A DNA stretch of 64,000 bases, from NCBI GenBank assembly GCA_019422105.1, contig JAHZDZ010000001.1, forward strand, positions 3,491 to 67,490, given 5' to 3'. Below are positions 9,045 through 63,965 of this stretch, piece after piece. The notes under the pieces were generated by a model, which saw nothing but the letters and a program-made list of their open reading frames with translations, ran no database searches and was not told where the DNA came from. The position numbers and the translations under genes were made by a program. Numbering within the stretch: position 1 is the stretch's first letter; every line of letters begins with the position of its first letter. Source of the DNA: Bacillota bacterium (lineage in GTDB: Bacteria > Bacillota > Clostridia > Lachnospirales > Anaerotignaceae).

Positions 9045-10484
9045 TTACCGTACTTCCGTTTTTTTCTCGCCTCGGGCCATTTTTCCTTCTACCTCAAAAT
9101 AGCCATAGGTCACCGTCTGAATTTCTTCTAATTCAATTATCTTACCGTATTTTTTCTCCAAGTCCCTCTGATATTCTCCGTTCTTTCCCGCAAAAGCGCT
9201 GAGAAACCTCTTATCCGCCCGCACAACAGCACAGCTGAATATCGTCTGTACAAATATATTTTCTACCTGCCTTCGGATATTCCCCACAACAAAGGAAAGA
9301 TTGGGAACTCTGCCGCTTCCCTGGCAGCATTTGCATTCTCCCGTCATCTGGTACAGTAAAGAAGGTCTGGTTTTTTTTCTGGTCAGCTGCATAAGTCCCA
9401 GCTCAGTCATACCAACAACCGTTGTTTTGATCCTGTCTTTTTTGACCGCCGCCTCCAAAAATCCAGCAAGCTCTCTTTTATCCTCTTCCTGCTTCATGTC
9501 AATAAAGTCAATAATAATGATACCGGAAAGATTTCTAAGGCGAAGCTGCCTGGCAATTTCCTCCGCCGCCTCCAGATTGGTCTTTAAAAAGGTTTCCCGC
9601 AGCTCTTTTTTCCCTGTATATTTTCCCGTATTTACATCAATGACAACACAGGCCTCCGTCTGCTCTATCATAAGAAAACCGCCGCTTTTCAGCCATATTT
9701 TACGGTGAAAGGCTTTTTCCGCCTGACTTTCCACAAAATAATTCTGAAACAGAGGTATGTTATCCTCATAAAAGCTGATTTTTTCCTTCTCAATACCATA
9801 AAGATCCGCCGCACGCAAAAGCATTTCCCAGTCCTCCCTGCTGTTTAGGACAATGCTTTCCACATCCTTCGTATAAAGCTCACGGGCTGCCTTTAAAACA
9901 GAGGAATCATCCTTATATAATACGGCAGGCGCCTTCACAAAGCGGGATTCCCTATCAACCCTCTCAGCCCTTTGAACCAGAGCAGAAATTTCCTTTTCAT
10001 ACTCTTCCTCTGTTTTGTCTGCGCCCTCCGTTCTGACAATCACGCTGTACCCTGCCGGTACCAGCTTTGCAATAATATCCCGTATCCGATCCCGTTTCTT
10101 GATATCCGTAATTTTTTTGGAAACCCCCGGCTGCCTCGCGTCGCCGGGAATCAAAACGATAAATTTTCCCGGAAAGGATACCTTCCGCGTTACAACCGGT
10201 CCCTTCGAACCGAAAGCATCCTTCTCCGCCTGTACCAGTATTTCATCTCCCGCCTTCGGGCGTACTTCCTCCTCTTCAAAATAGAGATACGCCTTTTTTG
10301 CCTCTCCGATTTCCACAAAGGCGGCATTCATTCCCCTCAAAACATTTTCCACTCTGCCGCAGTAGATATTTCCCACAATGCTTTCCGCATCCTTATTGTC
10401 ATAAATCAGCTCAATCAGTTCTCCATCCTCCATTAGCGCTACACGCGTCTGGTGAACAGAGGAATCTATCAGTATTCTTTTCAT
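9045..10484 (-). CDS. rng: Ribonuclease G/E family (Rng/CafA-like)
   Basis: S1 domain GNIYCGRVENVLRGMNAAFVEIG, then a DNase-I-like catalytic core (VIDVNTGK). The ATG at 10484 follows GGAG; the ORF track starts at 10499. Confidence 0.85.
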   Translation of the reverse strand: MKRILIDSSVHQTRVALMEDGELIELIYDNKDAESIVGNIYCGRVENVLRGMNAAFVEIGEAKKAYLYFEEEEVRPKAGDEILVQAEKDAFGSKGPVVTRKVSFPGKFIVLIPGDARQPGVSKKITDIKKRDRIRDIIAKLVPAGYSVIVRTEGADKTEEEYEKEISALVQRAERVDRESRFVKAPAVLYKDDSSVLKAARELYTKDVESIVLNSREDWEMLLRAADLYGIEKEKISFYEDNIPLFQNYFVESQAEKAFHRKIWLKSGGFLMIEQTEACVVIDVNTGKYTGKKELRETFLKTNLEAAEEIARQLRLRNLSGIIIIDFIDMKQEEDKRELAGFLEAAVKKDRIKTTVVGMTELGLMQLTRKKTRPSLLYQMTGECKCCQGSGRVPNLSFVVGNIRRQVENIFVQTIFSCAVVRADKRFLSAFAGKNGEYQRDLEKKYGKIIELEEIQTVTYGYFEVEGKMARGEKKTEVR

Positions 10485-10506
10485 AATCTGACGCTCCAAA
10501 TTTCTT

Positions 10507-11229
10507 CTACTCTATCCCCTCATTCAAGGGAATATATTTTTCATCCTTCAGTTGAAACAGATCATTTCTGTTATAGCGTATTTTATATTTTTCAAAGGGA
10601 AGTCCCATAAAATCATAGAAACAGCTCAGTACAAGCTCCGCCTTCACGTTGCGGCTGCTGCCCGCTGCCAAAAACAGATACAGGCGTGCCTGTCCGTTTT
10701 CTGAAATATCCCTGATTTCAAAAATATCTTCGCGTATATCTGTTTCCAAAAAGTTGTGTTTTGTCTTTTTCATAACCTTGATTTCCTCCCTGTCCAAAAA
10801 GGACGGGAGAAACCTTTCAATCATTTCCGGCGTAACCCTGTCATCCAGTACCGCCTCATAGGAAGCCGCCTCCACAGAGGCCATGGCGTTTTTACAGCCC
10901 TCTCGCATTGCTGAGGCGGAAAGGACTTTAACTCCGTCGGGCAGCACGCTGTTCAATCCTTCCACAATCGCCTCCGGCGTTACCTCGCCGGCCATTTCAA
11001 AATCACCATACTCCCCCGTGCTGGTCATGCCTAGAGAAAGGGGATTGGCAAAAGCCATCTGCTGATGGGGGTTAAAACCCTTTGAATAGGCAATAGGCAA
11101 AGACGCCCTTTTGACAGCCCTCTGAAAAAGCCGCATGACATCCAAATGGCCGATATATTTAACCTCCGCACCCTTTGTAAATTTCACCCTATACTTCATA
11201 GCAAATACCTCCGCCAAAACATTTTGCAC
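10507..11229 (-). CDS. Radical-SAM-associated protein (TIGR03936 / DUF2344 family as I recall it)
   Basis: About 230 aa starting MKYRVKFTKG..KYIGHLD, immediately downstream of and overlapping the B12-binding radical SAM gene. The likely true start at 11199 overlaps the upstream stop by 11 nt. Confidence 0.65.
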   Translation of the reverse strand: MQNVLAEVFAMKYRVKFTKGAEVKYIGHLDVMRLFQRAVKRASLPIAYSKGFNPHQQMAFANPLSLGMTSTGEYGDFEMAGEVTPEAIVEGLNSVLPDGVKVLSASAMREGCKNAMASVEAASYEAVLDDRVTPEMIERFLPSFLDREEIKVMKKTKHNFLETDIREDIFEIRDISENGQARLYLFLAAGSSRNVKAELVLSCFYDFMGLPFEKYKIRYNRNDLFQLKDEKYIPLNEGIE

Positions 11230-13036
11230 CGCAGGAGGAGCATTCCTGACGACAGTTGGGCGTTACAATGCCCTCCTCCGCTCTCCGCCTCTCCCGTATA
11301 AAAAAGTCCTTGGAAACGCCTACAGAAATATGATCCCAGGGCAGTATCTCGTCAAAGCTTCTTTTGCGGTTTGCATAAAACGCAGGATCTGCGCCCGCAT
11401 TCTCAAAAGCCTGCATCCATTTGTCAAATACAAAAATATCGTTCCAGCCGTCAAATATACACCCAAGCTTCCACGCCTCATAGAGTACCCTTCCAATACG
11501 CCTGTCCCCTCTGGCCACAACACCCTCCAGAAAGCTCAGCTTTGCGTCATGGTAAGTAAATTTAATCTGCTTTCTGGAAATAGCCTTTTTCACCATTCTG
11601 CCCTTGCGCTCAAATTCCTCAAAGGTATCCTGCGCATCCCATTGAAACGGCGTAAAAGGCTTGGGAACAAAACAGGAGCTTGAAGCAGCTACTGTAAGAG
11701 GGCGTTTTCTCATCTCCTTTGGCATTTTATAGTACTCGTCCACAATTTTTGCCGTCAAATCCGCAATGCCCAGCAAGTCCTCCTCTGTCTCTGTGGGGAG
11801 TCCTATCATAAAATAGAGCTTTACCCTGTCCCAGCCGCCCCCAAAGGCCAGCTTACAGCCGCTTAATATTTCTTCCTCAGAGAGGTTTTTATTGATAACG
11901 TCCCGAAGCCTCTGGGTTCCCGCCTCCGGCGCAAATGTCAGAGAGCTTTTGCGCACCTCCTGTATCTTCTGCATCAAATCCAGAGAAAAGGCGTCTATTC
12001 TCAGGGAGGGCAGAGAAAGGTTTACCTCCTGGCCCTTGAATTCATCCAAAAGAGAATTGGCTAAAACAGGAAAACAGGTATAATCACTGGTGCTGAGGGA
12101 AATTAACGATATTTCCTCATGCCCTGAGGCCCCGACCAGCTTCTTTGCCTGTTCCAATAAAGTTTCCGCTGTTTTTTCTCTGACAGGGCGGTAGACAAAG
12201 CCTGCCTGACAAAAACGGCAGCCTCGGATACAGCCCCTGAAAAGCTCCAATGTAACCCTGTCATGTACAATATCTATGAGCGGCACAAGCTGTTCCTCAG
12301 GATAAAATACACTGTCCACATCCTTGACAATAACCTTTTTCAATACTCTTCTGGCATTTTTGTGAGTTGGGGCAAAGGATGCAATCTCTCCGGTTTCCTT
12401 ATATGTCACCTCATAAAACTTCGGTATATAAATACCGTCAAACTGCAATAAAGCCTCCAAAAATTCCTCTTTCGTTTTTCCGTCCTTTTTAAAGGCCTTA
12501 TACATATCCAAAATCTCATCGTATAAAACCTCTCCCTCGCCCAGATAAAAGAAATCCACAAAATCTGCCAAAGGTTCCGGGTTATAGGCACAGGAACCAC
12601 CGCATATGACAAGGGGATCCTCCTCAGAACGCTCAGAGGCATACAGTGGAATTCCTGCCAGACTCAGCATATTTAATATGTTGGTATAGCACATTTCATA
12701 CTGCAAAGTAAACGCAACAAAATCAAAATCACGGACCGGGGACTGTGTTTCCAGAGAAAAAAGAGGAATGTGATTCTCCCTCATTTGCCTGTCCATGTCA
12801 ATCCACGGCGCAAATACCCTTTCACAGTAGGTATCCTTACGCCTGTTCAAAAAGAAATAGAGTATCTGAAGGCCCAGATGGGACATTCCCACCTCGTAGA
12901 CATCCGGAAAGCAAAAAGCAAAGCGGATGTCCATATCCTCCGGATTCTTTTTTACCATGTTTATCTCATTGCCTGTATACCGTGCAGGCTTCTCCACCTG
13001 CATGAGTATCTCATCAGGTACAATATTTTTTATCAT
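11189..13036 (-). CDS. B12-binding-domain radical SAM protein (TIGR03960-like)
   Basis: 615 aa with cluster motif FRGCIRGCRFCQAG and an N-terminal Rossmann-like B12-binding region. Conserved partner of the DUF2344 gene and rng. Confidence 0.75.
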   Translation of the reverse strand: MIKNIVPDEILMQVEKPARYTGNEINMVKKNPEDMDIRFAFCFPDVYEVGMSHLGLQILYFFLNRRKDTYCERVFAPWIDMDRQMRENHIPLFSLETQSPVRDFDFVAFTLQYEMCYTNILNMLSLAGIPLYASERSEEDPLVICGGSCAYNPEPLADFVDFFYLGEGEVLYDEILDMYKAFKKDGKTKEEFLEALLQFDGIYIPKFYEVTYKETGEIASFAPTHKNARRVLKKVIVKDVDSVFYPEEQLVPLIDIVHDRVTLELFRGCIRGCRFCQAGFVYRPVREKTAETLLEQAKKLVGASGHEEISLISLSTSDYTCFPVLANSLLDEFKGQEVNLSLPSLRIDAFSLDLMQKIQEVRKSSLTFAPEAGTQRLRDVINKNLSEEEILSGCKLAFGGGWDRVKLYFMIGLPTETEEDLLGIADLTAKIVDEYYKMPKEMRKRPLTVAASSSCFVPKPFTPFQWDAQDTFEEFERKGRMVKKAISRKQIKFTYHDAKLSFLEGVVARGDRRIGRVLYEAWKLGCIFDGWNDIFVFDKWMQAFENAGADPAFYANRKRSFDEILPWDHISVGVSKDFFIRERRRAEEGIVTPNCRQECSSCGAKCFGGGICYEV

Positions 13037-13212
13037 GTGTTTTCCTCCAAAAATGAAATCATCTATATACTGCTCAATCCAGATAACATGTCATTTCTCC
13101 GTATCTGAAAATTTCTTTTATTATCATAACCTAAAAAAGGAAGAATTGCACGGAAAATATGTTTTTTCCTTTTCTCTGATGTCTTCGGGTATACACACTA
13201 TTTTGAAAAAGA

Positions 13213-13241
13213 CAAAAAAGAAGAGGAGATTTTCCTCCTCT
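13213..13241 (-). terminator. Rho-independent terminator (minus strand) with no annotated gene directly upstream
   Basis: Minus strand reads AGAGGAG-GAAAAT-CTCCTCT followed by TCTTTTTTGTCTTTTT. It lies 640 nt downstream of the spoIVFB-like stop. Confidence 0.65.
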
Positions 13242-13405
13242 CAGACTGTCATAAAACGATAGGAACGCATACTCGAACACCCGCAAGACTCTAAAAAACG
13301 CTCGGCCTGAATTTTGCGAAAGTTAAAACAACGCTTGATTTTCCAAGGAAAACGCAATTTTCCGTTACGGGTCAAGGGCGGGTCCTTGTGAAAGCTTGAG
13401 GGGGG

Positions 13406-18154: not shown

Positions 18155-19678
18155 CTATTCCTTGAAAAGATGAAATTTACTGGTAAAGGAAGTCCCCTCT
18201 CCCAATGTACTGTTCACAATTATCTCTCCGTGATGGCTGTCCATAATCCATTTTGCTATGGAAAGTCCAAGTCCCGTGCCGGGTATCTCCTTATTCCTGG
18301 ATTTATCCGCTCTGTAAAACCGGTCAAAAATATGGGGCAAATCCTCAGCCTCCATGCCGGCGCCATTATCGGATACACTGATATAACCGTACTGTTTATC
18401 CTTCCAGACACAAAACAGTATTTCTCCTGTCTCCTGACTTGTATATTTCAGTGAATTTTCCGTATAAATCCACAACAGCTGCTTTAAAAGGTCAGGATCT
18501 GCATATACCTTTACCTCATCCTTTTCCTCCAGCTTTACCAGACGTCCGGTTTCCATTACCCTTAACTCTCTGGCAATATCCTGTGCCATCTGATTCAGAG
18601 TTATTTCCTGCTTTTGCAGATGGTTTTTATTCTGGTCGCTTTTCGCCAGAAAAAGAAGCTTCTTAATTAAGGTACTCATATGCTCCGTTTCCGCCAGTAT
18701 GGAATCAATGGACTCCTGCAATATCGTCGGATCGCTTTTGCCCCAGCGGTTGACTAAATTGGCATAGCCTTGAATCACAGAAATAGGTGTCCTCAGCTCA
18801 TGACTGGCATCAGAAATAAACTGTGTCTGCCTCTGAAAGGATTCCTCCAGCCTCTCAATCATGGAATTAAAGGTTATACTCAACTCCTTCATTTCATCGT
18901 CAGGCCCGCTCAGCTCTATTCTTTGGCTCAAATCCTCTATGCTGATCCTCTCCGCTGTCTGTCTTATATTCTCCACAGGCTTTAATATCAGGCGGCTGAT
19001 ATACTTTCCTATGAGAAAAGCGATTAAAATACCCACCGCGTCCAATATCAAAAGGCGCAGGGCAAATCCGTAAACGTAATACCTCTGCTCCGTAATCATC
19101 TTAAAGGCCTGAACAAAATAGATGTTTTCTCCGTAGGAAACAGTCCTCTCCACAAGCATAAACTCGTTGCCGCCGTCCCCCTGAATCATATATTCTCTTC
19201 CATCATTGCGGGGGCTTTTTTTCTCATTCTTAATGCTTTTCTCATCAGCGCCGGAAAAGCCGGGGAAACCCTCCTCCTCAGGCGGCAGCTGTGTCCTTCC
19301 CTCTATACCGCCGTCCTTCGCCGAATCCTGATGCCGGATCATGTTTTTCACCATTTCAGGCTGTATGACAAATGGGGGAAGCCCTCCTATGGCACTTTTG
19401 TAATAATCCCCCGTCTTCATATTCACTATCATAAATTCTACATACTTATTCTGCAGAAGTCCCTCCAACGCCTCGTCCGTTATTTCACTTCCCGATTCTA
19501 TGGCCTTCTGGATATTGTCAACAGACTGGATTACCTCCTGTCTTACAGAGCTTTCCCGAACCAAAACTGCGTTTCCCATGATAATTACGCTTATCACAAT
19601 AATGGTCAGGGAAAATATGCCGCCGTATAATATCGTAATTTTCTTTGCTATCTTCGTGTTCTTAAATTTTCCAAGCAT
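18155..19678 (-). CDS. Sensor histidine kinase (two TM helices, HAMP, HisKA, HATPase)
   Basis: H-box SHELRTPISVIQGY, N-box and G-boxes DNGAGM and GTGLGLSIAK. The ATG at 19678 follows GAGGA; the ORF track starts at 19702. Confidence 0.88.
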   Translation of the reverse strand: MLGKFKNTKIAKKITILYGGIFSLTIIVISVIIMGNAVLVRESSVRQEVIQSVDNIQKAIESGSEITDEALEGLLQNKYVEFMIVNMKTGDYYKSAIGGLPPFVIQPEMVKNMIRHQDSAKDGGIEGRTQLPPEEEGFPGFSGADEKSIKNEKKSPRNDGREYMIQGDGGNEFMLVERTVSYGENIYFVQAFKMITEQRYYVYGFALRLLILDAVGILIAFLIGKYISRLILKPVENIRQTAERISIEDLSQRIELSGPDDEMKELSITFNSMIERLEESFQRQTQFISDASHELRTPISVIQGYANLVNRWGKSDPTILQESIDSILAETEHMSTLIKKLLFLAKSDQNKNHLQKQEITLNQMAQDIARELRVMETGRLVKLEEKDEVKVYADPDLLKQLLWIYTENSLKYTSQETGEILFCVWKDKQYGYISVSDNGAGMEAEDLPHIFDRFYRADKSRNKEIPGTGLGLSIAKWIMDSHHGEIIVNSTLGEGTSFTSKFHLFKE

Positions 19679-19682
19679 ACTC

Positions 19683-20369
19683 TCATTCCTCATCCTTGAC
19701 AAAGTAGCCGACGCCTCTGATGGTATGAATATACTTTGTATTAAAATGCTCGTCTATCTTGGCGCGCAGATAACGGACATACACATCCACAACATTAGTC
19801 TCTCCTATATAATTGTAGCCCCACACCTGATTGAGAATCTGCTCTCTGCTCAAAACGATATTTTTATTCTGCACCATGTAAAGCAAAAGCTCATACTCCT
19901 TTTTGGTCAGCTCCACAGCCTCGTCCTTTACCTTGACAAAGCGCTTATCCATATCAATGGTCAAATCCTGTACCTGAAGAATATTTTTTTTATCACTGCG
20001 CTGCCTGTTCCTTTTCAGCGCAACCCTCATACGCGCCAAAAGCTCTTCTATGGCAAAGGGCTTCGTGATATAATCGTCGGCACCGCTGTCAAGCCCCGCC
20101 ACCTTATCCATCACCTCATCCTTTGCCGTAAGCATTATAATAGGGATATCGGAGGATTTGCGTATTCTTCTGCATATCTCTATGCCATTGAGCCCCGGAA
20201 GCATCAGATCAAGGAGCAGGAGATCAAACTCCCCCTCCAAAAAAGTATCAAGTCCTTCCCTGCCGTTATGGCAGATTGTCACCTGGTAACCCTCGTATTT
20301 CAGTTCCAGCTCAACAAACCTGGCAAGCTTGATTTCATCCTCAATAAGTAAAATTCTTCCGTTTTCCAT
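19683..20369 (-). CDS. OmpR/PhoB-family response regulator
   Basis: Receiver domain (LLLDLMLPGLNG, LTAKD) plus a winged-helix domain (TIRGVGYFV). Confidence 0.9.
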   Translation of the reverse strand: MENGRILLIEDEIKLARFVELELKYEGYQVTICHNGREGLDTFLEGEFDLLLLDLMLPGLNGIEICRRIRKSSDIPIIMLTAKDEVMDKVAGLDSGADDYITKPFAIEELLARMRVALKRNRQRSDKKNILQVQDLTIDMDKRFVKVKDEAVELTKKEYELLLYMVQNKNIVLSREQILNQVWGYNYIGETNVVDVYVRYLRAKIDEHFNTKYIHTIRGVGYFVKDEE

Positions 20370-55266: not shown

Positions 55267-55926
55267 TTAAACATTTTCCTCTTCCTGAGGGATTAATAAT
55301 TTTTTATAGTATCCCTCTGTCATATAAAGAGGCTGTGCGGGACAGTGTCCCGTCACCCTGTCCTTTGCAAGAAGCACTGAGCTCGGCGCCTCCGCATATT
55401 TAAAAAACAGAGAGTCATGCCCTACACAAAGTCCAATCACCACATTAAAATCCGTTTTCTCCTCATTGAGTATTTTTGCCTGCAAAATGGGATTGCACAT
55501 GGATTCATGGCTGCCCGGCTGAATTTTATCACTTTCTGGCAGATCAAGAAAAGTTTTGTCAACGCTGCCCACCTTGCAAACCACGCCCCTTGGCTCAAAC
55601 CCATTGATCCGCAGTATTTTCGCAAAGGTTCTGGCCTCCGCAAGTGTGCCCACACAGGTTGCGATGCCAACTCTCCTGGCGCCTATTTTTTTCATCAGGC
55701 GTATTGTCTCCTCCACCCTTGTAAGTTTACAATAGTAGTGTGCCTCTATCTGGGCTGACGCTCTTGAAATCTTATAGTTCATTTCATCTTCCCGGTAGAG
55801 CTTCATTGTCTCATCCAAAAATCCCGGATCCATTTCCGCCGTCCTGCACCCCTTTGGATAAGGGCCGTTTCTTTTGCTGCACGTTTTTACTGCACAATCA
55901 CTGCACGTAAAGTCTTTTAAATCCAT
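55267..55926 (-). CDS. Cys-rich metal-binding protein (DUF1847-like as I recall the family)
   Basis: 219 aa with an N-terminal CSDCAVKTC..GC cluster, MCNPILQAKILN and GLCVGHDSLF motifs. Confidence 0.55.
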   Translation of the reverse strand: MDLKDFTCSDCAVKTCSKRNGPYPKGCRTAEMDPGFLDETMKLYREDEMNYKISRASAQIEAHYYCKLTRVEETIRLMKKIGARRVGIATCVGTLAEARTFAKILRINGFEPRGVVCKVGSVDKTFLDLPESDKIQPGSHESMCNPILQAKILNEEKTDFNVVIGLCVGHDSLFFKYAEAPSSVLLAKDRVTGHCPAQPLYMTEGYYKKLLIPQEEENV

Positions 55927-55944
55927 TTTTAATCCCCCCTGAAA

Positions 55945-58368
55945 TCACCAAATTTCAATCCTGTCCTTAGAAGGTATATACATGCCATCTCCTTCCTCTA
56001 TTCCATAGGTATTATAAAAGAAATCAAACATATTTACCATATTGTTGACCCGGACAATTCCGGGACTGTGTTCGTCATAGTGCAAATCAAAGCGTATGCT
56101 TTCCTCCCCTTCCTTACAGGCAAAGGCCCTCGCATAGGTTTCAAAGAACGCCTCTGCATTATAGCTGTCCATATCCCTCAAAACATCAATGGCACAGGCC
56201 AGCCCACCCAAATCTGCAATGTTTTCCCGAAGCGTCTGGCTGCCATCCACCCGCTCCCCAGGCATTACCTCTACTTTGGAATAATAGGAGGCTATTTTTT
56301 CCGCCAATTTCTGAAAATGACTGAAATCACTGTCACTCCACCAGATATTATAGTTCCCCCTGTTGTCGTAATAAGCGCCCCTGTCGTCAAAGGCGTGGGA
56401 TATTTCATGGCCTACAATGACACCGATACCGCCAAGCTTCTTCTCCTTTGTCCAGGCAGGGTCATAAAAATATCCCTGCAAAATACCGGCCGGTATGGTA
56501 ATCTCATTGCGCAACAAATCATAATAGGCATTGACACTGTAACAGTCAATCACCCATTTCCCCTCCACAGGACTTTTATATCTCTTCGTCAGCTTTGACA
56601 GCTTATCCTGAAAAAACGCCCTGTAGGTGTCAAATATATTTCCGCTCTCGTTATAGGTTTTAATGGAAACACCGCTGTAATCTTCCCATTTTGCCGGATA
56701 ACCTATTTTTATTGTCATACGGCTAAGCTTGATCAGGGCCATCTCCTTGGCACTTTCAGAAAGCCAGCTGTTATTTTTCAGTCTTTCCTTATACTTTCCG
56801 ATAATCTCCTCTGTTAAATCAAATACATCCTTTTTATCAATATCCGAAAAATACTTTTCAATATAAATCCTGCCAAGGGCATCACCCATCAAAGCATTTA
56901 CAAAAGCTTTGGCGTCCGTTGTAATATTGATTGTCACGTTTGTGCCCAAAACCTCATTATACATGTCCAGATAAATTTGCCTAAGCTCCTCAGAGGCCAT
57001 GCTTGAAAGCTCCATAACCATTGTCACAGTGAGATAATCCTTTAAAAATTCCAGCGTTTCGTTTTGAAACGCCTTGTCCGTCATCACAAGGGAATCCAGA
57101 TTTCTTGTGACCACACGGTTTACATTCTCAAAGCCGATATCGTGTATCACATCGCCGATTTTTAAATTGGGCATCAGCTTCTCAATTTCATCCAGAGAAT
57201 ATTCCTGATATGCAATGCTTTCCTCCCGTATCCTTGACTGGGCAATATTCCTCTCAAAGGTTAGAATTTCCTCAGCCCGCAGCTTTGCCTCATTTTCATT
57301 TTTTCCAAGCAGCATTAAATACTTCGCAAGATATTTTTTATAAACATTTCTTGCGTTGACACTTGCCTCATCATTTTCTGTGTAGAAGCTCGCCTCATCA
57401 AACAGCCCAAGCTTCAAAGGATTCAGGTAAAAACTGTTTGACCTGTTATCCTGCTTCCCAGGCGCAATTTCATACTGGAAAAGACCATTTACACCGCAGT
57501 CCTTCGCGTTATAGATAATCGCCTGCCTCAATTCATTTTTGGATGCCGCATCTGTTATTGCGCCTAAATTCTCATTCAGAGGGACAAGTCCCTGCCAGTT
57601 ACGGTATGTTGTGTCAATAAATTGTTTGTAAATCTCGCCTATTTTCCATTCATCGGAATTTCTGTCATAAATATTTTGATTATTGACACAATTACCGATA
57701 ATGCCGGCAATTTTGTTGTTTACCTGTGCTTCTACAGTGCTGAAGGAGGTAGTCTTTGTAGTACCCCACCCAAAGCCTGTATTCACCAGCCAGGGATTGT
57801 TGACATAAGTAAAAAAATTATCCTTTAAGCTGACCTGTTTCACACTGTAAGGATTGTCCTTCCCCAGATACTGGGCATTTTTAATCTTCCCGATTACCTC
57901 ATAGACATCAGATTCCGTCATATAGGCTGTAAGATTTTGCTGTTTTGTATATATTCCCAAGTATTGCAAAATATCCACATATGGTGCTGCCCATTCAAGT
58001 GCCGCGCCATATTTCTCGGTATTATCCACGTAGGGAGCCGTATTCCATCCCAAAAGCTTAACAAATATGACAGCACCCTGCGCCCATGTTATTCTCCCCT
58101 CCGGATTTGCGGCCCCGTAATTGTCGCCGGACAGATATCCTGCTTTCCTGGCAATAAGCATATCCTTGTACTTTACGTTATCTGTATCAATATCAGCAAA
58201 GGAAGCATCCTCAAAATCTGTATATTCAAAAGCCCTGTTTACAATACCGCACAGAGCCAGTCTGGTTATAAAGGGGTCTGTCTCCTCCGCGGCTGCCAAA
58301 ACCGTATTCCCGAATGTCAGAAAAACAGCCAGCCATATGGCAATGCACTTTCTTATCCACCTTCTCAT
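55945..58368 (-). CDS. M13 (neprilysin/PepO) family metalloendopeptidase with signal peptide and an SLH-like N-terminal module
   Basis: VIVGHEISHAFD (HExxH) and ENIADLGG motifs. The N-terminal segment FADIDTDNVKYKDMLIARKAGYLSG...NPEGRITWAQGAVIFVKLL resembles an S-layer-homology repeat. The ATG at 58368 follows GGAGG; the ORF track starts at 58431. Confidence 0.82.
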   Translation of the reverse strand: MRRWIRKCIAIWLAVFLTFGNTVLAAAEETDPFITRLALCGIVNRAFEYTDFEDASFADIDTDNVKYKDMLIARKAGYLSGDNYGAANPEGRITWAQGAVIFVKLLGWNTAPYVDNTEKYGAALEWAAPYVDILQYLGIYTKQQNLTAYMTESDVYEVIGKIKNAQYLGKDNPYSVKQVSLKDNFFTYVNNPWLVNTGFGWGTTKTTSFSTVEAQVNNKIAGIIGNCVNNQNIYDRNSDEWKIGEIYKQFIDTTYRNWQGLVPLNENLGAITDAASKNELRQAIIYNAKDCGVNGLFQYEIAPGKQDNRSNSFYLNPLKLGLFDEASFYTENDEASVNARNVYKKYLAKYLMLLGKNENEAKLRAEEILTFERNIAQSRIREESIAYQEYSLDEIEKLMPNLKIGDVIHDIGFENVNRVVTRNLDSLVMTDKAFQNETLEFLKDYLTVTMVMELSSMASEELRQIYLDMYNEVLGTNVTINITTDAKAFVNALMGDALGRIYIEKYFSDIDKKDVFDLTEEIIGKYKERLKNNSWLSESAKEMALIKLSRMTIKIGYPAKWEDYSGVSIKTYNESGNIFDTYRAFFQDKLSKLTKRYKSPVEGKWVIDCYSVNAYYDLLRNEITIPAGILQGYFYDPAWTKEKKLGGIGVIVGHEISHAFDDRGAYYDNRGNYNIWWSDSDFSHFQKLAEKIASYYSKVEVMPGERVDGSQTLRENIADLGGLACAIDVLRDMDSYNAEAFFETYARAFACKEGEESIRFDLHYDEHSPGIVRVNNMVNMFDFFYNTYGIEEGDGMYIPSKDRIEIW

Positions 58369-58567
58369 AATTCTGCCTCCATGATGCGTTTTGCCGTATA
58401 AAAAAGAGGGCGCATAGACAGGATAATACACAATATCCCTTCTCTATGCACCCCTTTTCCTCAGAATTTACGCATTGCCAGAGAATGCGGTTGACACCGT
58501 ATGCTTCTCCATCTGCGTACTATTAATACTATAATACAATCTGAGGCAGAAAACTATTAATTTTCTA

Positions 58568-59704
58568 TTAAAATATACTTCCGCTTATAATCATACGCTG
58601 TATTTCATTGGTTCCCTCATAAATCTGTGTTATCTTGGAGTCACGGAACATTCTCTCCACATGCTGTTCCCTCATGTAGCCTGCGCCGCCCATAGACTGA
58701 ACACATTCCGTTGTCACCCTCATTGCCAGGTTGCTGCACGCAAGCTTCGCTTTACATGCCGCTACAGCAAAGTCCATTCCTTCCTGCTGCTCCCAAACAC
58801 CTCTGTATAAAAGCCATTTTGCCATATCAATTTCCGTTCTTAAATCAGCCATACGGAAAGCCATGTACTGATTTTTGCAGATTGGTTTGCCAAACTGCTC
58901 TCTTTCCTTCATATAATCTCTGGCTATATCAAAAGCACCCTCTGCAAGTCCCAGGCCCTGCGCCGCTACGCCAAGTCTGCCTGCATTTAAAGCCGTCAAA
59001 GCATAACGGAAGCCTTTTCCTTCTACGCCAACCATTCTGCTTGCGGGAATTACAGCATCCTCAAAGAGGATTTCCGCTACTCTTGCGCTGCGGATACCGC
59101 ACTTGTTCTCAATATGACCGATACGAACACCCGGCGTTTTCTTTAAATCCACAAGGAACGCTGTCAAGCCCTTGGGGCCCTTTGATAAATCGGTATTCGC
59201 AATCAGCATACAATAATCTGCAACCACACTGTTTGTAATATAGTGCTTGCTGCCGTTAATGATATAGTTGTCGCCATCCCGCACGGCCGTTGTTTTTGCC
59301 GAACCTGCGTCAGAACCTGCGTCGGGCTCTGTCAAAGCAAAACATCCAATAGAATCGCCGCTGAATAAATGCGGCAGGCAGTGCATTTTTTGCTCCTCAT
59401 TTGCAAATGTAAAAATGCCTGTTGTAAAGGTAGAGGAAATTGCATAGGCAATCGCAAAAGAAGAATCCACTTTGCTTAGCTCCTCAACCACAAGAATAAA
59501 GGACAGATAGTCATCGCCCTGGCCGCCGTATTCCTTCGGAAACTGAATGCCGATTAATTTTTCGTCTCCCAGCTTCTTTAAAAGATCCATTGGAAATACT
59601 TCAGCATTATCTCTTTCAATAACGCCTTCGCGAAGCTCTCTCTCAGCAAACGCCCTTGCTTTGTCCCGATACATTTTCTGCTTTTCTGTTAAACTAAAAT
59701 CCAT
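58568..59704 (-). CDS. Acyl-CoA dehydrogenase (short-chain/butyryl-CoA dehydrogenase-like)
   Basis: 378 aa with GCFALTEPDAGSD and the C-terminal YEGTNEIQRMIISG catalytic-Glu context. AGAGGAGG RBS. Confidence 0.9.
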   Translation of the reverse strand: MDFSLTEKQKMYRDKARAFAERELREGVIERDNAEVFPMDLLKKLGDEKLIGIQFPKEYGGQGDDYLSFILVVEELSKVDSSFAIAYAISSTFTTGIFTFANEEQKMHCLPHLFSGDSIGCFALTEPDAGSDAGSAKTTAVRDGDNYIINGSKHYITNSVVADYCMLIANTDLSKGPKGLTAFLVDLKKTPGVRIGHIENKCGIRSARVAEILFEDAVIPASRMVGVEGKGFRYALTALNAGRLGVAAQGLGLAEGAFDIARDYMKEREQFGKPICKNQYMAFRMADLRTEIDMAKWLLYRGVWEQQEGMDFAVAACKAKLACSNLAMRVTTECVQSMGGAGYMREQHVERMFRDSKITQIYEGTNEIQRMIISGSIF

Positions 59705-60139
59705 TCAAAATACCTCCTCTTTTTTCCAAAAACCAAACTATTTTTCCCCAATCTCAATTTAACAGATACTATCGGTGTAAAGTCAACCCAAAGAAAAAAA
59801 TTTTAATTTTTCTTTTTTTATGTATTTTTATGAAAACTCTCCTATAGGCAAGCATAGAGCTATGAGGACAGTCTCAGCTGCCGGAAAATACCATTATTTT
59901 TCTCCAAGCTTCCCCTAACGTAAACCTTTTGCCGCCGGTCTCTCTGCCAAGCCCTTCCTCACTCGAAATTCCCATGCTGCCGCTTGTAATTTAGGTACTG
60001 TGGAGTACTGTCACAGGTCATTTCAAGCCGTTTCATTGTATCCTTGCAGTATGTCTCCCATTATGCACACATCAAAAAACTTTGCTGCTTTTTATTGCCG
60101 CCGATCCGTGTCTGCCTGAATCCCCATTGCTGTACGCCG

Positions 60140-61228
60140 TTACAGCATATTTATATCAATCACCTTTTTTGTAAGCGCCAAAACCAGTTTTTCAATGGCA
60201 ACACAGTCGTCTAGGCACAAAACCTCCGTCGGAGAATGGGAATACCTCCTTGGAAGGGCAATACACATGGTGGCGTTGCCTTTTCCCGCATTCACAGAGC
60301 CGGAACCGTTATTGGAATAAAATGCGCCAACAAACGCAAACTCCTGCACAGGGATATTTTCAGCAGCCGCTGTCTTTCTGGTGGCCTCAAGAAGCTTTGG
60401 ATGGGCAACCGCATAATTAAATGCTCGCAAATTATGCTGTACCAGCATCAAAGCAGCGCCGCCGCCGATTTTCAGAGGATTGTCAATCTCGCTGGAATCC
60501 GGCACGTCTCCCGTTGGCACCGTATCAAAAAGGAAGCAGTAATCCGGATTAATATGAAGGATTGCCGGCTGTATTCCCCTGACTGTAACCTCCTCCAATG
60601 TGGTAAAGGTAAAATAGTGCGAACCTCTGATGGCATTTTTGTCTATCCTCTTTATCACATCCACAAGTATAGCGCAAAGCGCACGGCAGTCCGCCGCTCT
60701 TGTCACCAGAAAATTGGGATCGGCAAGCTCTGTACAGGGACTGTCTATTACCATCTGGCATCCCGGCCGCACTCCCATCTCCAGCGCCTTTTCTCTGCTT
60801 CCGGCACAGATATCCACATAGGATACTTTCGCGGTCTGCATTTTTTTCAGCTCCTCCTCCGAGAGCATATGGGTAGAACGTGTTCCAATCACTCCCGGAA
60901 TAACTCCCTTTTCCGTCTTTATTAATACCCTGCGGCTTGGAAGAACCGCATCGGAGGAACCGCCCACCTTTCCAAAATATAAAAATCCTTTTTCGTCTAT
61001 ACTTCTGATAACATAGCCAACCTCGTCCAAATGAGCGTCATAGAGAACCTTTGGTCCGTCCTGTGCCCCCTTCACCGTCACAATCAAATTTCCGTTGGCC
61101 AGCATCTCTATGTTGTCAGCATAATCCTTTACCTCATTGGCAATGTATTTCGCTATGTCCCACTCATATCCGCAAACGCCGATGAGACTTGTCAGTGCTT
61201 TGATTTCCTTTCTCAATGCTTCCTTCAT
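60140..61228 (-). CDS. M42-family metallopeptidase (TET/FrvX/YsdC-like aminopeptidase)
   Basis: About 362 aa with the AHLDEVGYVI metal-ligand motif, a PDZ-like insert and a C-terminal HSPTE motif. Confidence 0.8.
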   Translation of the reverse strand: MKEALRKEIKALTSLIGVCGYEWDIAKYIANEVKDYADNIEMLANGNLIVTVKGAQDGPKVLYDAHLDEVGYVIRSIDEKGFLYFGKVGGSSDAVLPSRRVLIKTEKGVIPGVIGTRSTHMLSEEELKKMQTAKVSYVDICAGSREKALEMGVRPGCQMVIDSPCTELADPNFLVTRAADCRALCAILVDVIKRIDKNAIRGSHYFTFTTLEEVTVRGIQPAILHINPDYCFLFDTVPTGDVPDSSEIDNPLKIGGGAALMLVQHNLRAFNYAVAHPKLLEATRKTAAAENIPVQEFAFVGAFYSNNGSGSVNAGKGNATMCIALPRRYSHSPTEVLCLDDCVAIEKLVLALTKKVIDINML

Positions 61229-61374
61229 ACGAATCACTCCATTCTGCGCATTCTATGAACCATAACGTATTTTCTTTTTGCTTCATGTAAACAGGAGCTG
61301 CACTGCGGGCAAATGTGCATCTCACCTCAGTAAGATTCCTCCCCCTTCGGCAAACAGCCTTCTTCTGTTTTTCA

Positions 61375-61758
61375 TTAGACAGCTCTGGGCAGCTCATAGA
61401 CAGCAGTCATCACCATAACAAGAACAGGATCGGCAATGATGTCTGCAGAGCTCTCAAAGGGAGCGTTTTCCGGCAGGCACCCGACCTTAAAGCATCTGGT
61501 CTCCAGCGTAACCCGCCTGCCTTCAGCCTGCAGTACACGTGCGTGATATTCCATATAGTCTCCCGCGTAGCAGGGACAAAACATACGGTTTTTCGTCACC
61601 TTTACACATCGGCCCATATTGCCGAATTCTTTGGCCATAAGGCGGTTGGCACAGTCGCCCATCAGGGTAACGTTCCTGGCGCCGTTGACAAGACCTCCTC
61701 CATAATAACAGTCTTTTTGTGATAATCTGCTGCGCATGCATATTGTACGGTCACTCAT
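61375..61758 (-). CDS. Hotdog-fold protein, beta-aminoacyl-CoA ammonia-lyase (Acl/Kal)-like paralog B
   Basis: 127 aa. KDCYYGGGLVNGARNVTLMGDCA and YAGDYMEYHARV resemble the AHY.G.LV.GA....GD and VYVGDFMEYHG segments that I recall from beta-alanyl-CoA and 3-aminobutyryl-CoA ammonia-lyases. Confidence 0.55.
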   Translation of the reverse strand: MSDRTICMRSRLSQKDCYYGGGLVNGARNVTLMGDCANRLMAKEFGNMGRCVKVTKNRMFCPCYAGDYMEYHARVLQAEGRRVTLETRCFKVGCLPENAPFESSADIIADPVLVMVMTAVYELPRAV

Positions 61759-61784
61759 AACATATTCTCCTTTCCCGGTTATTT

Positions 61785-62234
61785 TTAGCAGTCAATTTCC
61801 ATCCATGGATTTTTTACAATGCCGTCCGGCTGTATGCCTCGCTGAAGCTCCTTTTTCACTACTAGGATACACTCAAATGTCGCAATCAGCCTGGGCTCTT
61901 CAAACCATACCATATCTCCCTCAAGCGCATCATCTATTCCCGCGCGGCGGGCAGGCGTTGCCAGCTTGTATACAGAACAGGAGGTGGTGCGGGATGTGTT
62001 GCCCACCTTATCCAAAGACGCCCTGAACTGAATCATATCCCCAACATATATATCCTCCATAATTTCTACATCCGGATAGCCGAGGGCCAGTGACTCGTCT
62101 CCGTCATTGAGAATAAGAACCTCCGTCTCTGCATCACCCGCAATATCAAAAAGTCTTCCATAGTGAACCACCCCATCCGCCGTACTGGCGTCTACGGAGC
62201 TGAGGTTCCGATCTAAAAAGGATACTGTTCTCAT
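61785..62234 (-). CDS. Hotdog-fold protein, beta-aminoacyl-CoA ammonia-lyase (Acl/Kal)-like paralog A
   Basis: 149 aa. DGDESLALGYPDVEIMEDIYVGDMIQFRASLDKVGNTSRT matches the DGD..L.LGY..IEF...VYVGD......I.KVGN.S pattern that I recall for Acl/Kal. Confidence 0.55.
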   Translation of the reverse strand: MRTVSFLDRNLSSVDASTADGVVHYGRLFDIAGDAETEVLILNDGDESLALGYPDVEIMEDIYVGDMIQFRASLDKVGNTSRTTSCSVYKLATPARRAGIDDALEGDMVWFEEPRLIATFECILVVKKELQRGIQPDGIVKNPWMEIDC

Positions 62235-62282
62235 AATTCATTCCTCCATTTTCTAATATTTGACCCTATGCGGGTAATTGAT

Positions 62283-63461
62283 TTACATAATGCCCTCCAT
62301 TTTGAACTGTTCCAGCTGTTCCACTGTCAGACCAAACACTGATAAATTATCCTGTCCCAGCAGCGGCGACGCCTGTTCAACGCTTCCAGGCGTCCGTGAA
62401 AGCTTCATAACACAGCCCTGAAGCTTCATATCCCCCGCCAAGGGATGTCTGCATGGAACTACCATCTCACGCGCTTTAATATGGGAAGACTCAATAATTT
62501 CCTTCATATTAAGCAGTGGGCCGCAGGGAATACTGGCCTCGGCCATAATGGCTTCCACCTCTTTTTTTGTCCTTTCGCTGCACCAGTCATTTATAACCTT
62601 CTGCAAATCAGGAATATAGTTCTCATGACGCAGACTGTTTGTTTTATACCGCGGGTCCTCTTTCAGCCACGGACGGCCGATTACATCACAGAAAACCCCA
62701 AACTGCCGATCATTGCCAACTCCGATTGTTATGTAGCCGTCCCTGCATTCATATACATCAAAGGGCGCTATAATCATGTCCACATTACCACTGCGCTTTG
62801 CAATTTCGCCGTTCATGGTATAATCCACAACAGCGCTCTCCAAAATACTGAAAATTGTGTCTACCATAGAAACATCGACCTGCTGTCCTTCCCCTGTCAT
62901 GGCCCTGTGGTAAAGGGCAAGAAGTATCCCCGTGGCAAGATAGATGCCGGAGACATGGTCAGCGACGGAAGGGCCGACCTTAACCGGCTTGCCGTCAGGA
63001 TAACCGGTCAAATTCAGTATGCCGCCCATAGCCTGTGCTATAGAATCAAAACAGGGGCGTTCTGCCAGAGGGCCATACTGTCCAAAGCCGGACCCGGAAG
63101 CGTAGATGATTTTGGGATTAATTTTATAGAGCGTCTCATAATCAATTTGCAGCCTTTTGGTAACACCGCCCTTATAGTTTTCAACCACCACATCAGCATT
63201 CCTTACCATTTCATAAAAAAATTGGCGGGCTTTTTCATTTTTCAAATTTAACGTCACACCTTTTTTGTTTCGGTTCCAGTTGCAAAAGCAGCCGCTCTCT
63301 CCGCTTTTGGGGTCAATGGGAACAAGCCCTCTTCCCATTTCACCGCCCGGCGGTTCAATTTTCAATACATCAGCCCCATAATCGGCTAAAATCATGGTAC
63401 AAAAAGGACCGCTGAGAGCAGAAGTCAAATCCAGAACCTTGAGACCCTGTAATGCTTTCAT
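62283..63461 (-). CDS. Class III CoA-transferase (CaiB/BaiF family)
   Basis: LQGLKVLDLTSALSGPFCTMILADYGADVLKIEPP is the family N-terminal signature. The catalytic-Asp region is GPSVADHVSG. The ATG at 63461 follows AAGAGGT; the ORF track starts at 63485. Confidence 0.88.
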   Translation of the reverse strand: MKALQGLKVLDLTSALSGPFCTMILADYGADVLKIEPPGGEMGRGLVPIDPKSGESGCFCNWNRNKKGVTLNLKNEKARQFFYEMVRNADVVVENYKGGVTKRLQIDYETLYKINPKIIYASGSGFGQYGPLAERPCFDSIAQAMGGILNLTGYPDGKPVKVGPSVADHVSGIYLATGILLALYHRAMTGEGQQVDVSMVDTIFSILESAVVDYTMNGEIAKRSGNVDMIIAPFDVYECRDGYITIGVGNDRQFGVFCDVIGRPWLKEDPRYKTNSLRHENYIPDLQKVINDWCSERTKKEVEAIMAEASIPCGPLLNMKEIIESSHIKAREMVVPCRHPLAGDMKLQGCVMKLSRTPGSVEQASPLLGQDNLSVFGLTVEQLEQFKMEGIM

Positions 63462-63644
63462 TTTCAATACCTCTTTTCCAGTCACAGTCTAGCTTGATAC
63501 CTGTTTCATATTTTTATGGTAACAATTCCAGCCGCGTGAATGTCAACAGGTACTTGCATTTTTTATGAACTGCCCGGTTAGGAAAAGTCCCAAAAGGTTC
63601 CCCTTAGGGGAATACCAAAAGAGCATATTCCTTTATGAACGCAA

Positions 63645-63668
63645 ACAAAAAAGCCGCAGCGCGGCCTT
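63645..63668 (-). terminator. Terminator-like hairpin upstream of the CoA-transferase promoter region
   Basis: Minus strand reads AAGGCCGC-GCT-GCGGCTT followed by TTTTGTTTG. Confidence 0.55.
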
Positions 63669-63965
63669 CCTGTTCTGATCTGTTCTGATCTCTTCAGATC
63701 AAACTATTTTTTGTGTGAAATCTAATTTAGAAATCAGGACTTGTGAATAAAATTGGTGAAATAAAAAAATACTATTTTCCGAAACCTTGATGTCAAACCA
63801 TTTTTAGCTATCCTTTTTTCGTTTACTGTGAAACCCCTCTTATTCAGCATAAAATTTTACGTTTTCCTTTTTATTTTTACGCTGTTTTAGCCACAACACC
63901 GACATATACATATATACAAATTTAATCTTCCTCTAATATTCTGTGCCATTAGAAAATTTCAAAAT

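Follow-up and report, generated by a model that had tools for sequence, protein, structure and literature searches.

The stretch of 64,000 nucleotides (nt) from the Bacillota bacterium contig JAHZDZ010000001.1 that was analysed here (the window) carries five co-directional genes on its minus strand, all of which were found as open reading frames (ORFs) where an earlier note on this DNA had placed them. In the order of transcription they encode a class III (CaiB/BaiF-type) CoA-transferase of 392 amino acids (aa) with the Pfam domain CoA_transf_3 (62283..63461), a large hotdog subunit of 149 aa (61785..62234), a small hotdog subunit of 127 aa (61375..61758), an M42 metallo-aminopeptidase with the Pfam domain Peptidase_M42 (60140..61237; public gene calls begin at the ATG at 61228) and a Bcd/AcrC-type acyl-CoA dehydrogenase (ACAD) of 378 aa with three Pfam ACAD domains (58568..59704). 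The spacings between consecutive genes, from the CoA-transferase to the ACAD, are 48, 26, 137 and 435 nt, in agreement with the earlier description. The five genes are real and not chance ORFs, and each has many conserved homologs.

The large and small hotdog subunits, hereafter L and S, are proposed to be partners in one two-subunit beta-aminoacyl-CoA ammonia-lyase. We consider, with a probability of about 0.65, that the locus is the core of a reductive beta-amino-acid fermentation module with a heteromeric L/S lyase, the substrate of which is most likely derived from pyrimidines.

Relationship of L and S to known ammonia-lyases

The earlier note had taken both small proteins for relatives of beta-alanyl-CoA ammonia-lyase (Acl) and 3-aminobutyryl-CoA ammonia-lyase (Kal), and these were indeed the only significant families. 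Among all PDB sequences, Acl2 of Clostridium (Anaerotignum) propionicum (PDB 4mtu) was the sole significant match of both proteins. E values with the single sequence were 2.7e-14 for L and 4.8e-11 for S, and those with the family profile were 1.6e-27 and 8e-19, respectively. Acl1/Acl2 (PDB 4mtu/4mzq) belong to the same hotdog family and are the only solved relative of L and S. In NCBIfam, L and S matched only the Kal model NF052388 and a Kal-fusion variant, both below cutoff; NF052388 gave 62.7 bits for L and 64.3 bits for S (E ~1e-17 for both) against an equivalog cutoff of 160 bits. L and S are not Kal equivalogs. A Pfam scan matched neither protein to any family, including thioesterase and MaoC domains.

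Window L and S are 22% identical to each other, and profile-profile alignment with hhalign related the two at E 1.5e-10 with 17% identity. Each of them is nearer to Acl2 than to the other. The Acl/Kal superfamily is tiny: an exhaustive HMMER scan gave 168 representatives (50%-identity clusters) at E <= 1e-3 among 1.84 billion. A word-indexed search with S gave only 23 close relatives, and the natural fusions described below were recovered by querying with a fusion instead. Automated pipelines, including that of JGI, name some homologs Acl and many of them 3-aminobutyryl-CoA ammonia-lyase.

Complementary motifs and predicted structure

The alignment comprised 78 different L and 84 different S sequences, together with Acl2 and five canonical paralogs of the single-gene type that some of the clusters contain. 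Six motifs occur together in Acl2 and in the canonical paralogs. The motifs GD.[GE]TE, [DH]GD.SL..GY and QRG.Q are present in 78/78 L sequences and G[NG].S in 73/78, and all four are found in 0/84 S sequences. Conversely, the Y.G..V.G[AS][RH] loop is present in 82/84 S sequences and GD[FYW][ML]E[YF] in 73/84, and both are found in 0/78 L sequences. The window proteins follow this partition. L holds GD.ETE, DGDESL.LGY, KVGNTS and QRG.QP without the VNGAR loop, and S holds Y.GG.VNGAR and AGDYMEY without the four L motifs. Thus the statement of the earlier note that both proteins carry the Acl/Kal pattern stands only in part, since each has a portion of it, neither has all and the two portions are complementary. 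A homo-oligomeric enzyme is expected to have the complete six-motif set in a single chain, which is the case for neither L nor S. Acl is such a single-gene homo-oligomer with all motifs in one chain, whereas the same six motifs are counted over the L+S pair, that is, over two paired or fused polypeptides that are ~17-22% identical.

In hotdog enzymes in general, the N-terminus of the central helix polarises the thioester carbonyl, and the active sites lie at subunit interfaces. The AlphaFold2 model of a natural L-S fusion, P0121 (pLDDT 80.6), has two hotdog units, each consisting of a helix plus an antiparallel sheet, and the VNGAR loop of the S half is placed where the long central helix (residues 183-201) begins. 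With Foldseek, the best single-domain PDB match of this model was Acl (4mtu, TM 0.70), and the best full-length matches were the double-hotdog thioesterases ACOT12, ACOT7 and 2gvh.

These full-length matches raise the question of whether L/S is a lyase at all. L/S could be an acyl-CoA thioesterase, or a 3-hydroxyacyl-CoA dehydratase that feeds the ACAD (e.g. 3-hydroxypropionyl-CoA to acryloyl-CoA). Besides the fusion model, precomputed PF03061 (4HBT) matches of some fusions and marginal acyl-CoA hydrolase/thioesterase matches of L and S (E ~0.003-0.3) point in this direction. However, no sequence relatives other than Acl2 and Kal are statistically strong, the L+S pair as a whole keeps each of the six Acl2 motifs, window L and S have no Pfam thioesterase or MaoC match, and the pair sits directly downstream of enzymes that produce beta-amino acids. 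We regard a non-lyase function as very improbable.

Gene pairs and gene fusions

From the alignment of L homologs, 79 species-representative genomic loci were fetched, and S was sought in them by tblastn. The carriers are almost all Clostridia and include Anaerostipes, Lachnoanaerobaculum, Johnsonella, Eubacterium barkeri, E. aggregans, Peptoniphilus, Pseudoramibacter, many Clostridium and Oscillospiraceae; outside this main group, one Desulfovibrio metagenome-assembled genome (MAG) and Absicoccus carry the pair. An S homolog accompanies L in 79/79 loci. With few exceptions, S directly follows L at a distance of 15-148 nt, and the order S-CoA-transferase-L occurs in three loci. In 30/79 loci, a single uninterrupted ORF of 279-284 aa encodes both, and L invariably forms its first part. 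Such fusions also form more than 20 independent protein clusters at 90% identity, of which P0121 is present on 57 contigs, one of them a 1.3-Mb NCBI contig.

S is also fused to the N-terminus of the CoA-transferase. This arrangement was found in nine loci (L023, at 10475-12031, and L019, L024, L029, L030, L031, L034, L059 and L062) of Lachnoanaerobaculum and Johnsonella, in which a Lys-rich linker joins the two parts, and the 478-aa metagenomic protein P0175 has the same architecture. Because fusions run in both directions, L, S and the CoA-transferase probably act together physically, and the S-CoA-transferase fusions imply a putative lyase-transferase complex.

Six loci of several unrelated genera (L037, L038, L056, L065, L069 and L088) have the order L-S-CoA-transferase-L-S, with two pairs flanking the transferase. 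Divergent specificities of the two pairs were considered and rejected, as the copies are 95-100% identical within each genome. Rather than divergence, this points to gene conversion or to a recent dosage-related duplication.

The earlier note had guessed at a hetero-oligomer of the two small proteins. The pairing in all 79 loci, the 30 natural L-S fusions and the complementary motif loss strongly support this idea. Because of the pairing, the fusions and the clean motif split, the data indicate that the L/S lyase is obligately heteromeric (double-hotdog) and has a single composite active site. From an Acl-like homodimer whose two interface sites were equivalent, duplication and subfunctionalisation would have led to an L/S heterodimer with one complete site. 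In this site, S would supply the VNGAR loop at the helix N-terminus, and L would supply the acidic GD.ETE/DGDES motifs and the QRG.QP tail.

Known systems provide a parallel. The mycobacterial dehydratases HadAB/HadBC and the thioesterases ACOT7/ACOT12 likewise consist of two diverged hotdog units that make one functional unit with asymmetric catalytic elements, and natural split and fused forms of these likewise exist. They differ from L/S in that they belong to other hotdog subfamilies, catalyse dehydration or hydrolysis and have no detectable sequence relation to L/S beyond the fold.

Conserved gene neighbourhood

Neighbouring genes were counted up to a distance of 10 kb in each of the 79 loci; many of these loci are on truncated contigs. 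A CoA-transferase was found in 75/79 loci, an ACAD in 66/79, a MerR-HTH/GyrI-like regulator in 56/79, and EtfB and EtfA of the electron transfer flavoprotein (Etf) in 55/79 and 54/79, respectively. The conserved module is therefore the CoA-transferase, L, S, ACAD, EtfBA and a MerR/GyrI-type regulator, and the commonest orders are ACAD-EtfB-EtfA-CoA-transferase-L-S and L-S-CoA-transferase-ACAD-EtfB-EtfA. The co-conservation of the CoA-transferase, the two hotdog genes and the ACAD agrees with the core of the earlier proposal.

The other recurrent neighbours are dihydropyrimidinase (25/79), an M20 carbamoylase-type amidase (24/79), PreT-like protein (23/79), PreA (21/79), DUF1097 (YcdZ-like) protein (20/79) and a BrnQ-type carrier (17/79). 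Clustering of the remaining neighbours in the 79 loci revealed no further family in more than 10 loci. A side observation concerns a ~400-aa protein with a weak VWA/CoxE-like domain. In locus L060 (10917-12116) and nine other loci, which belong to one clade of uncultured Bacillota, its gene directly separates the L-S fusion from the MerR regulator.

The link to pyrimidine degradation (Pyd) is clearest in Lachnoanaerobaculum locus L023, where the gene order is DUF1097, PreT-like, PreA, dihydropyrimidinase, M20 amidase, L, S-CoA-transferase, ACAD, EtfB and EtfA. PreA (NF006183, 586 > 335 bits), dihydropyrimidinase (TIGR02033, 462 > 393) and the M20 hydantoinase/carbamoylase-family amidase (NF006771, 482 > 399) all score above the cutoffs of their models. 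Thus L023 holds a complete reductive pyrimidine pathway, which ends in beta-alanine from uracil and in 3-aminoisobutyrate from thymine, with the module directly after it. A complete pathway is contiguous with the module in about 25/79 genomes (Pyd genes within 10 kb: 21-25). In C. botulinum, a dihydropyrimidinase-like gene, DUF1097 and an M20 gene precede CoA-transferase-L-S, and C. tetanomorphum has the order BrnQ-CoA-transferase-L-S-ACAD-EtfBA.

In an Anaerostipes hadrus MAG (L052), ycdZ-preT-preA-hydA adjoins L/S-CoA-transferase-ACAD, a 418-aa M20 hydantoinase/carbamoylase-family amidase (12110-13366, minus strand; NF006771, 471 > 399) and a canonical Acl that is 80% identical to C. propionicum Acl2 (19535-19945, plus strand). 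L/S is thus not simply the same enzyme as Acl. A study of 5-fluorouracil metabolism in A. hadrus described only ycdZ-preT-preA-hydA and reported no beta-ureidopropionase homolog (PMC11036815), although the adjacent M20 gene passes carbamoylase-family models. In Peptoniphilus stercorisuis, two identical canonical Acl-type copies are located between the CoA-transferase and L-S.

The lysine-pathway genes kamA, kamDE, kdd and kce, the absence of which from the window had been pointed out before, were not found in Pfam-annotated contexts and do not recur among the neighbours in the 79 loci. Classical lysine fermentation was rejected, since no kam, kdd or kce-like neighbours recur.

The earlier note had viewed the five genes as a self-contained unit in which the M42 enzyme might split a dipeptide, such as a beta-alanyl one, and so provide the beta-amino acid on which the CoA-transferase, the lyase and the ACAD act. 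The M42 gene does lie between S and ACAD on the same strand, a sequence scan found no terminator-like site between S and M42, and the protein (PF05343, 226 bits) has an intact active site: in the alignment with YsdC (1vhe), HLDEVG, the D in AADCR, the catalytic EE, and the D and H ligands of the metals all align. Moreover, other genomes have an M20 enzyme of the carbamoylase type, also of clan MH, just upstream of L, so that non-orthologous replacement is conceivable. However, M42 was linked to L/S in 0/79 loci and was missing from the L/S loci of those relatives whose L proteins show 80%, 78% and 65% identity. Its 80 nearest metagenomic homologs, none of them more than 35% identical, lack neighbouring L/S and CoA-transferase genes. 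M42 enzymes are, in addition, known as alpha-aminopeptidases. On the linkage data, M42 was rejected as a conserved member of the module and is best read as a lineage-specific insertion or neighbour, not a component. A dipeptide-fed five-gene unit is accordingly improbable, and the comparative context suggests that the beta-amino acid usually stems from reductive pyrimidine degradation rather than from a dipeptide.

The module in the window

The window CoA-transferase matches PF02515 (CoA_transf_3) with 432 bits over profile positions 1-366 of 366. It is under all seven NCBIfam cutoffs, the best model being succinyl-CoA:mesaconate transferase (319 vs 700), and we propose that it is a beta-amino acid:acyl-CoA CoA-transferase. 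Its ATG at 63461 is preceded by the ribosome-binding site AAAGAGG; the longest ORF begins at a GTG at 63485.

The best NCBIfam model of the window ACAD is the acryloyl-CoA reductase subunit AcrC with 421.5 bits (cutoff 640), followed by a model with 278 bits, a lead of 144 bits. The window ACAD is 74-76% identical to the ACADs inside the L/S clusters of L025, L026, L049 and L086. Judged by this similarity, it belongs to the module although the M42 gene separates it from S, and it is proposed to be the enoyl-CoA reductase of the module with an Etf partner encoded elsewhere. It differs from AcrABC acryloyl-CoA reductase (ACAD plus EtfAB) in that it stays under the AcrC equivalog score and has no adjacent EtfB/EtfA.

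The 64-kb window contains no Etf or Pyd genes, so the genes for the Etf partner of the reductase must lie elsewhere, and the cell probably takes up the beta-amino acid or forms it by means of genes outside this stretch. The self-contained route of the earlier note was therefore not borne out, and a search for etfAB nearby gave only a C-terminal EtfA fragment. This fragment was found on contig L002 of the same strain, which is 100% identical to the window over a 539-nt overlap and extends upstream of the window end. Upstream, L002 encodes a MerR/GyrI-like regulator, the fragment and an iron-type alcohol dehydrogenase (Fe-ADH). The fragment, an ORF of 160 aa (1684-2166) located between the Fe-ADH and regulator genes, represents only the C-terminal part of EtfA (AcrA-like, 89 bits). 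It is probably a remnant of an ancestral ACAD-EtfB-EtfA arrangement, which suggests that the module was rearranged in this lineage.

The L/S loci of the closest relatives are varied. Their partners include Fe-ADH with an acylating aldehyde dehydrogenase, a methylmalonyl-CoA-epimerase-like gene, and a MaoC hydratase with a TRAP transporter. In the closest clade, with 78% L identity, the epimerase-like gene overlaps the end of S by 4 nt (L089, 10862-11254; also L090-L092). Its product has a glyoxalase fold and a score of 97 bits (cutoff 115), and a CoA-transferase gene is not found next to it. The epimerase-like gene may hint at 2-methyl-branched CoA substrates in the nearest clade of the window.

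The CoA-transferase gene has a long leader. A consensus scan that reported sites with at least 9/12 matches placed the best promoter-like site at 63769..63796 on the minus strand (TTGACA, 16 nt, TAGTAT; 10/12 matches), about 300 nt from the CoA-transferase start. The leader (63462-63796, minus strand) is unusually structured, with a fold z score of -4.4 and 0/100 shuffles equally stable. It includes a 14-bp hairpin followed by a U-run (63644..63674, minus strand), a candidate attenuator that is preceded by a GATCAGAACA tandem repeat. A known riboswitch was rejected, as no Rfam family matched the leader at gathering thresholds or at E <= 1, and the structure may be an attenuator or an unknown riboswitch. 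As for the promoter that the earlier note had assigned to the ACAD gene, the minus strand does carry TTGACT (59786-59781); however, the -10 element TTAAAT, 18 nt away, is weak, and this sigma-70-like candidate (59757..59786) is below the 9/12 limit of the scan and was not listed by it.

Directly downstream of the ACAD gene, an M13 (PepO-like) metalloendopeptidase, which has a hydrophobic segment at its N-terminus, and a DUF1847 protein are encoded on the minus strand (55267-58431). M13 was found near L/S in 0/79 loci. With M42 and M13, the module is flanked or interrupted by two peptidase genes, a feature of this lineage only.

Discussion

In the C. propionicum pathway, a CoA-transferase is followed by the lyase and then by acryloyl-CoA reductase, an AcrC-like ACAD with Etf. 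The proposed module mirrors the beta-alanine branch of this fermentation, which Herrmann et al. are said to have described in 2005. The class III CoA-transferase would move CoA from the end-product acyl-CoA of the pathway itself to a free beta-amino acid, and the L/S heteromer would eliminate NH3 to give a 2-enoyl-CoA. The ACAD, with an Etf encoded elsewhere in the genome, would reduce the enoyl-CoA to the saturated acyl-CoA, which would re-enter the CoA-transferase step with release of the fatty acid. The net reaction would be beta-amino acid + 2[H] to fatty acid + NH4+, an electron sink with no need for ATP. By this scheme, beta-alanine would be converted to propionyl-CoA via acryloyl-CoA, and 3-aminoisobutyrate to isobutyryl-CoA via methacrylyl-CoA. 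The order of CoA-transferase, lyase and ACAD reactions is the part of the earlier proposal that is supported; the link to the peptidase and the self-contained nature of the unit are not.

The synteny with pyrimidine-degradation genes suggests that the substrates are most likely pyrimidine-derived beta-alanine and/or 3-aminoisobutyrate. The main rival concerning the substrate is that L/S is a Kal-type 3-aminobutyryl-CoA ammonia-lyase, in which case 3-aminobutyrate would be converted to crotonyl-CoA and then, by a Bcd/Etf-type reductase, to butyryl-CoA/butyrate, independently of pyrimidines. The proposed reaction is the same in kind, beta-elimination of ammonia from a beta-aminoacyl-CoA, and NF052388 is the best hidden Markov model match of L and S. 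The Kal models are the only NCBIfam matches, JGI pipelines give many homologs the Kal name, and ACAD-EtfB-EtfA is the classical butyryl-CoA dehydrogenase arrangement. Furthermore, some Pyd clusters have a canonical Acl beside L/S, so that the role of the beta-alanyl-CoA enzyme may not fall to L/S. However, Kal is a single-chain enzyme whereas L/S has two subunits, the scores of 63-64 bits are far under the Kal equivalog cutoff, and no lysine-fermentation family recurs in the 79 neighbourhoods, kamA, kamDE, kdd and kce being absent nearby in any genome examined. The sole recurrent substrate-supplying genes are the pyrimidine set, which yields beta-alanine and 3-aminoisobutyrate and not 3-aminobutyrate, and AcrC is the best ACAD model. 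A Kal-type function is thus unlikely, and we favour a pyrimidine-derived substrate.

Several points weigh against the pyrimidine-linked L/S lyase. The activity and the substrate of L/S are inferred, as are the heteromeric active site, the reaction and its direction, from what the analysis shows, namely homology, pairing, fusions, motif partition and synteny. The inter-domain geometry of the P0121 model is not confident (pTM 0.55), and the Kal scores of L and S are low. The coexistence of canonical Acl with L/S implies that the specificity of L/S may differ from beta-alanyl-CoA. The window lacks Etf and Pyd genes, and its module may rely on genes at a distance or have undergone partial decay. 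The varied partners in the closest relatives make the specificity in this clade uncertain.

3-Aminoisobutyryl-CoA may be an attractive substrate of L/S that is distinct from that of Acl. It is possible, although doubtful, that the obligate L/S heterodimer, which is often fused, docks on the CoA-transferase, channels reactive CoA esters, and provides the final part of pyrimidine catabolism that has been missing for gut and oral Clostridia, a CoA-dependent and reductive one, with a specificity other than that of canonical Acl, such as 3-aminoisobutyryl-CoA. If this is true, uracil and thymine, and possibly beta-amino acids derived from fluoropyrimidines, would be converted to propionate and isobutyrate, with channelling of beta-aminoacyl- and acryloyl-type CoA esters.

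Another way to dispose of beta-alanine is known from the extended reductive pyrimidine degradation, in which PydA-C are complemented by a PydD/PydE aminotransferase branch that transaminates beta-alanine to malonic semialdehyde (PMC7332683). The PydD/PydE extension and the L/S module are alike in that both deal with beta-alanine from PreTA/dihydropyrimidinase/carbamoylase and share a gene cluster with these enzymes. The L/S route would differ in being CoA-dependent and reductive, from beta-alanyl-CoA via acryloyl-CoA to propionyl-CoA.

To our knowledge, Acl/Kal lyases are known only as single-gene homo-oligomers. The searchable literature contained no description of a two-subunit or fused Acl/Kal enzyme, no CoA-dependent continuation of pyrimidine degradation and nothing relevant on 3-aminoisobutyryl-CoA; subscription literature lay outside the search, and a prior description is possible. 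Pfam and NCBIfam have no model for the split/fused L/S architecture.

In conclusion, sequence comparison identifies L/S as a putative split, two-subunit architectural variant of the known Acl/Kal lyase within a widely conserved module, which probably serves to dispose of pyrimidine-derived beta-amino acids by reduction. The split and fused double-hotdog forms are widespread and, with their clean motif partition, make a textbook example of subfunctionalisation. Engineered pathways for acrylate, 3-hydroxypropionate and beta-alanine make use of Acl; therefore, a second natural lyase type, possibly with another specificity, is of practical biotechnological interest. The module also has a bearing on bacterial 5-fluorouracil metabolism; the published A. 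hadrus analysis ended at dihydropyrimidinase. The recurrent link to Pyd genes suggests a way in which short-chain fatty acids and ammonia are formed from pyrimidines by abundant gut and oral Clostridia such as Anaerostipes, Lachnoanaerobaculum, Eubacterium, Peptoniphilus, Clostridium botulinum and others.

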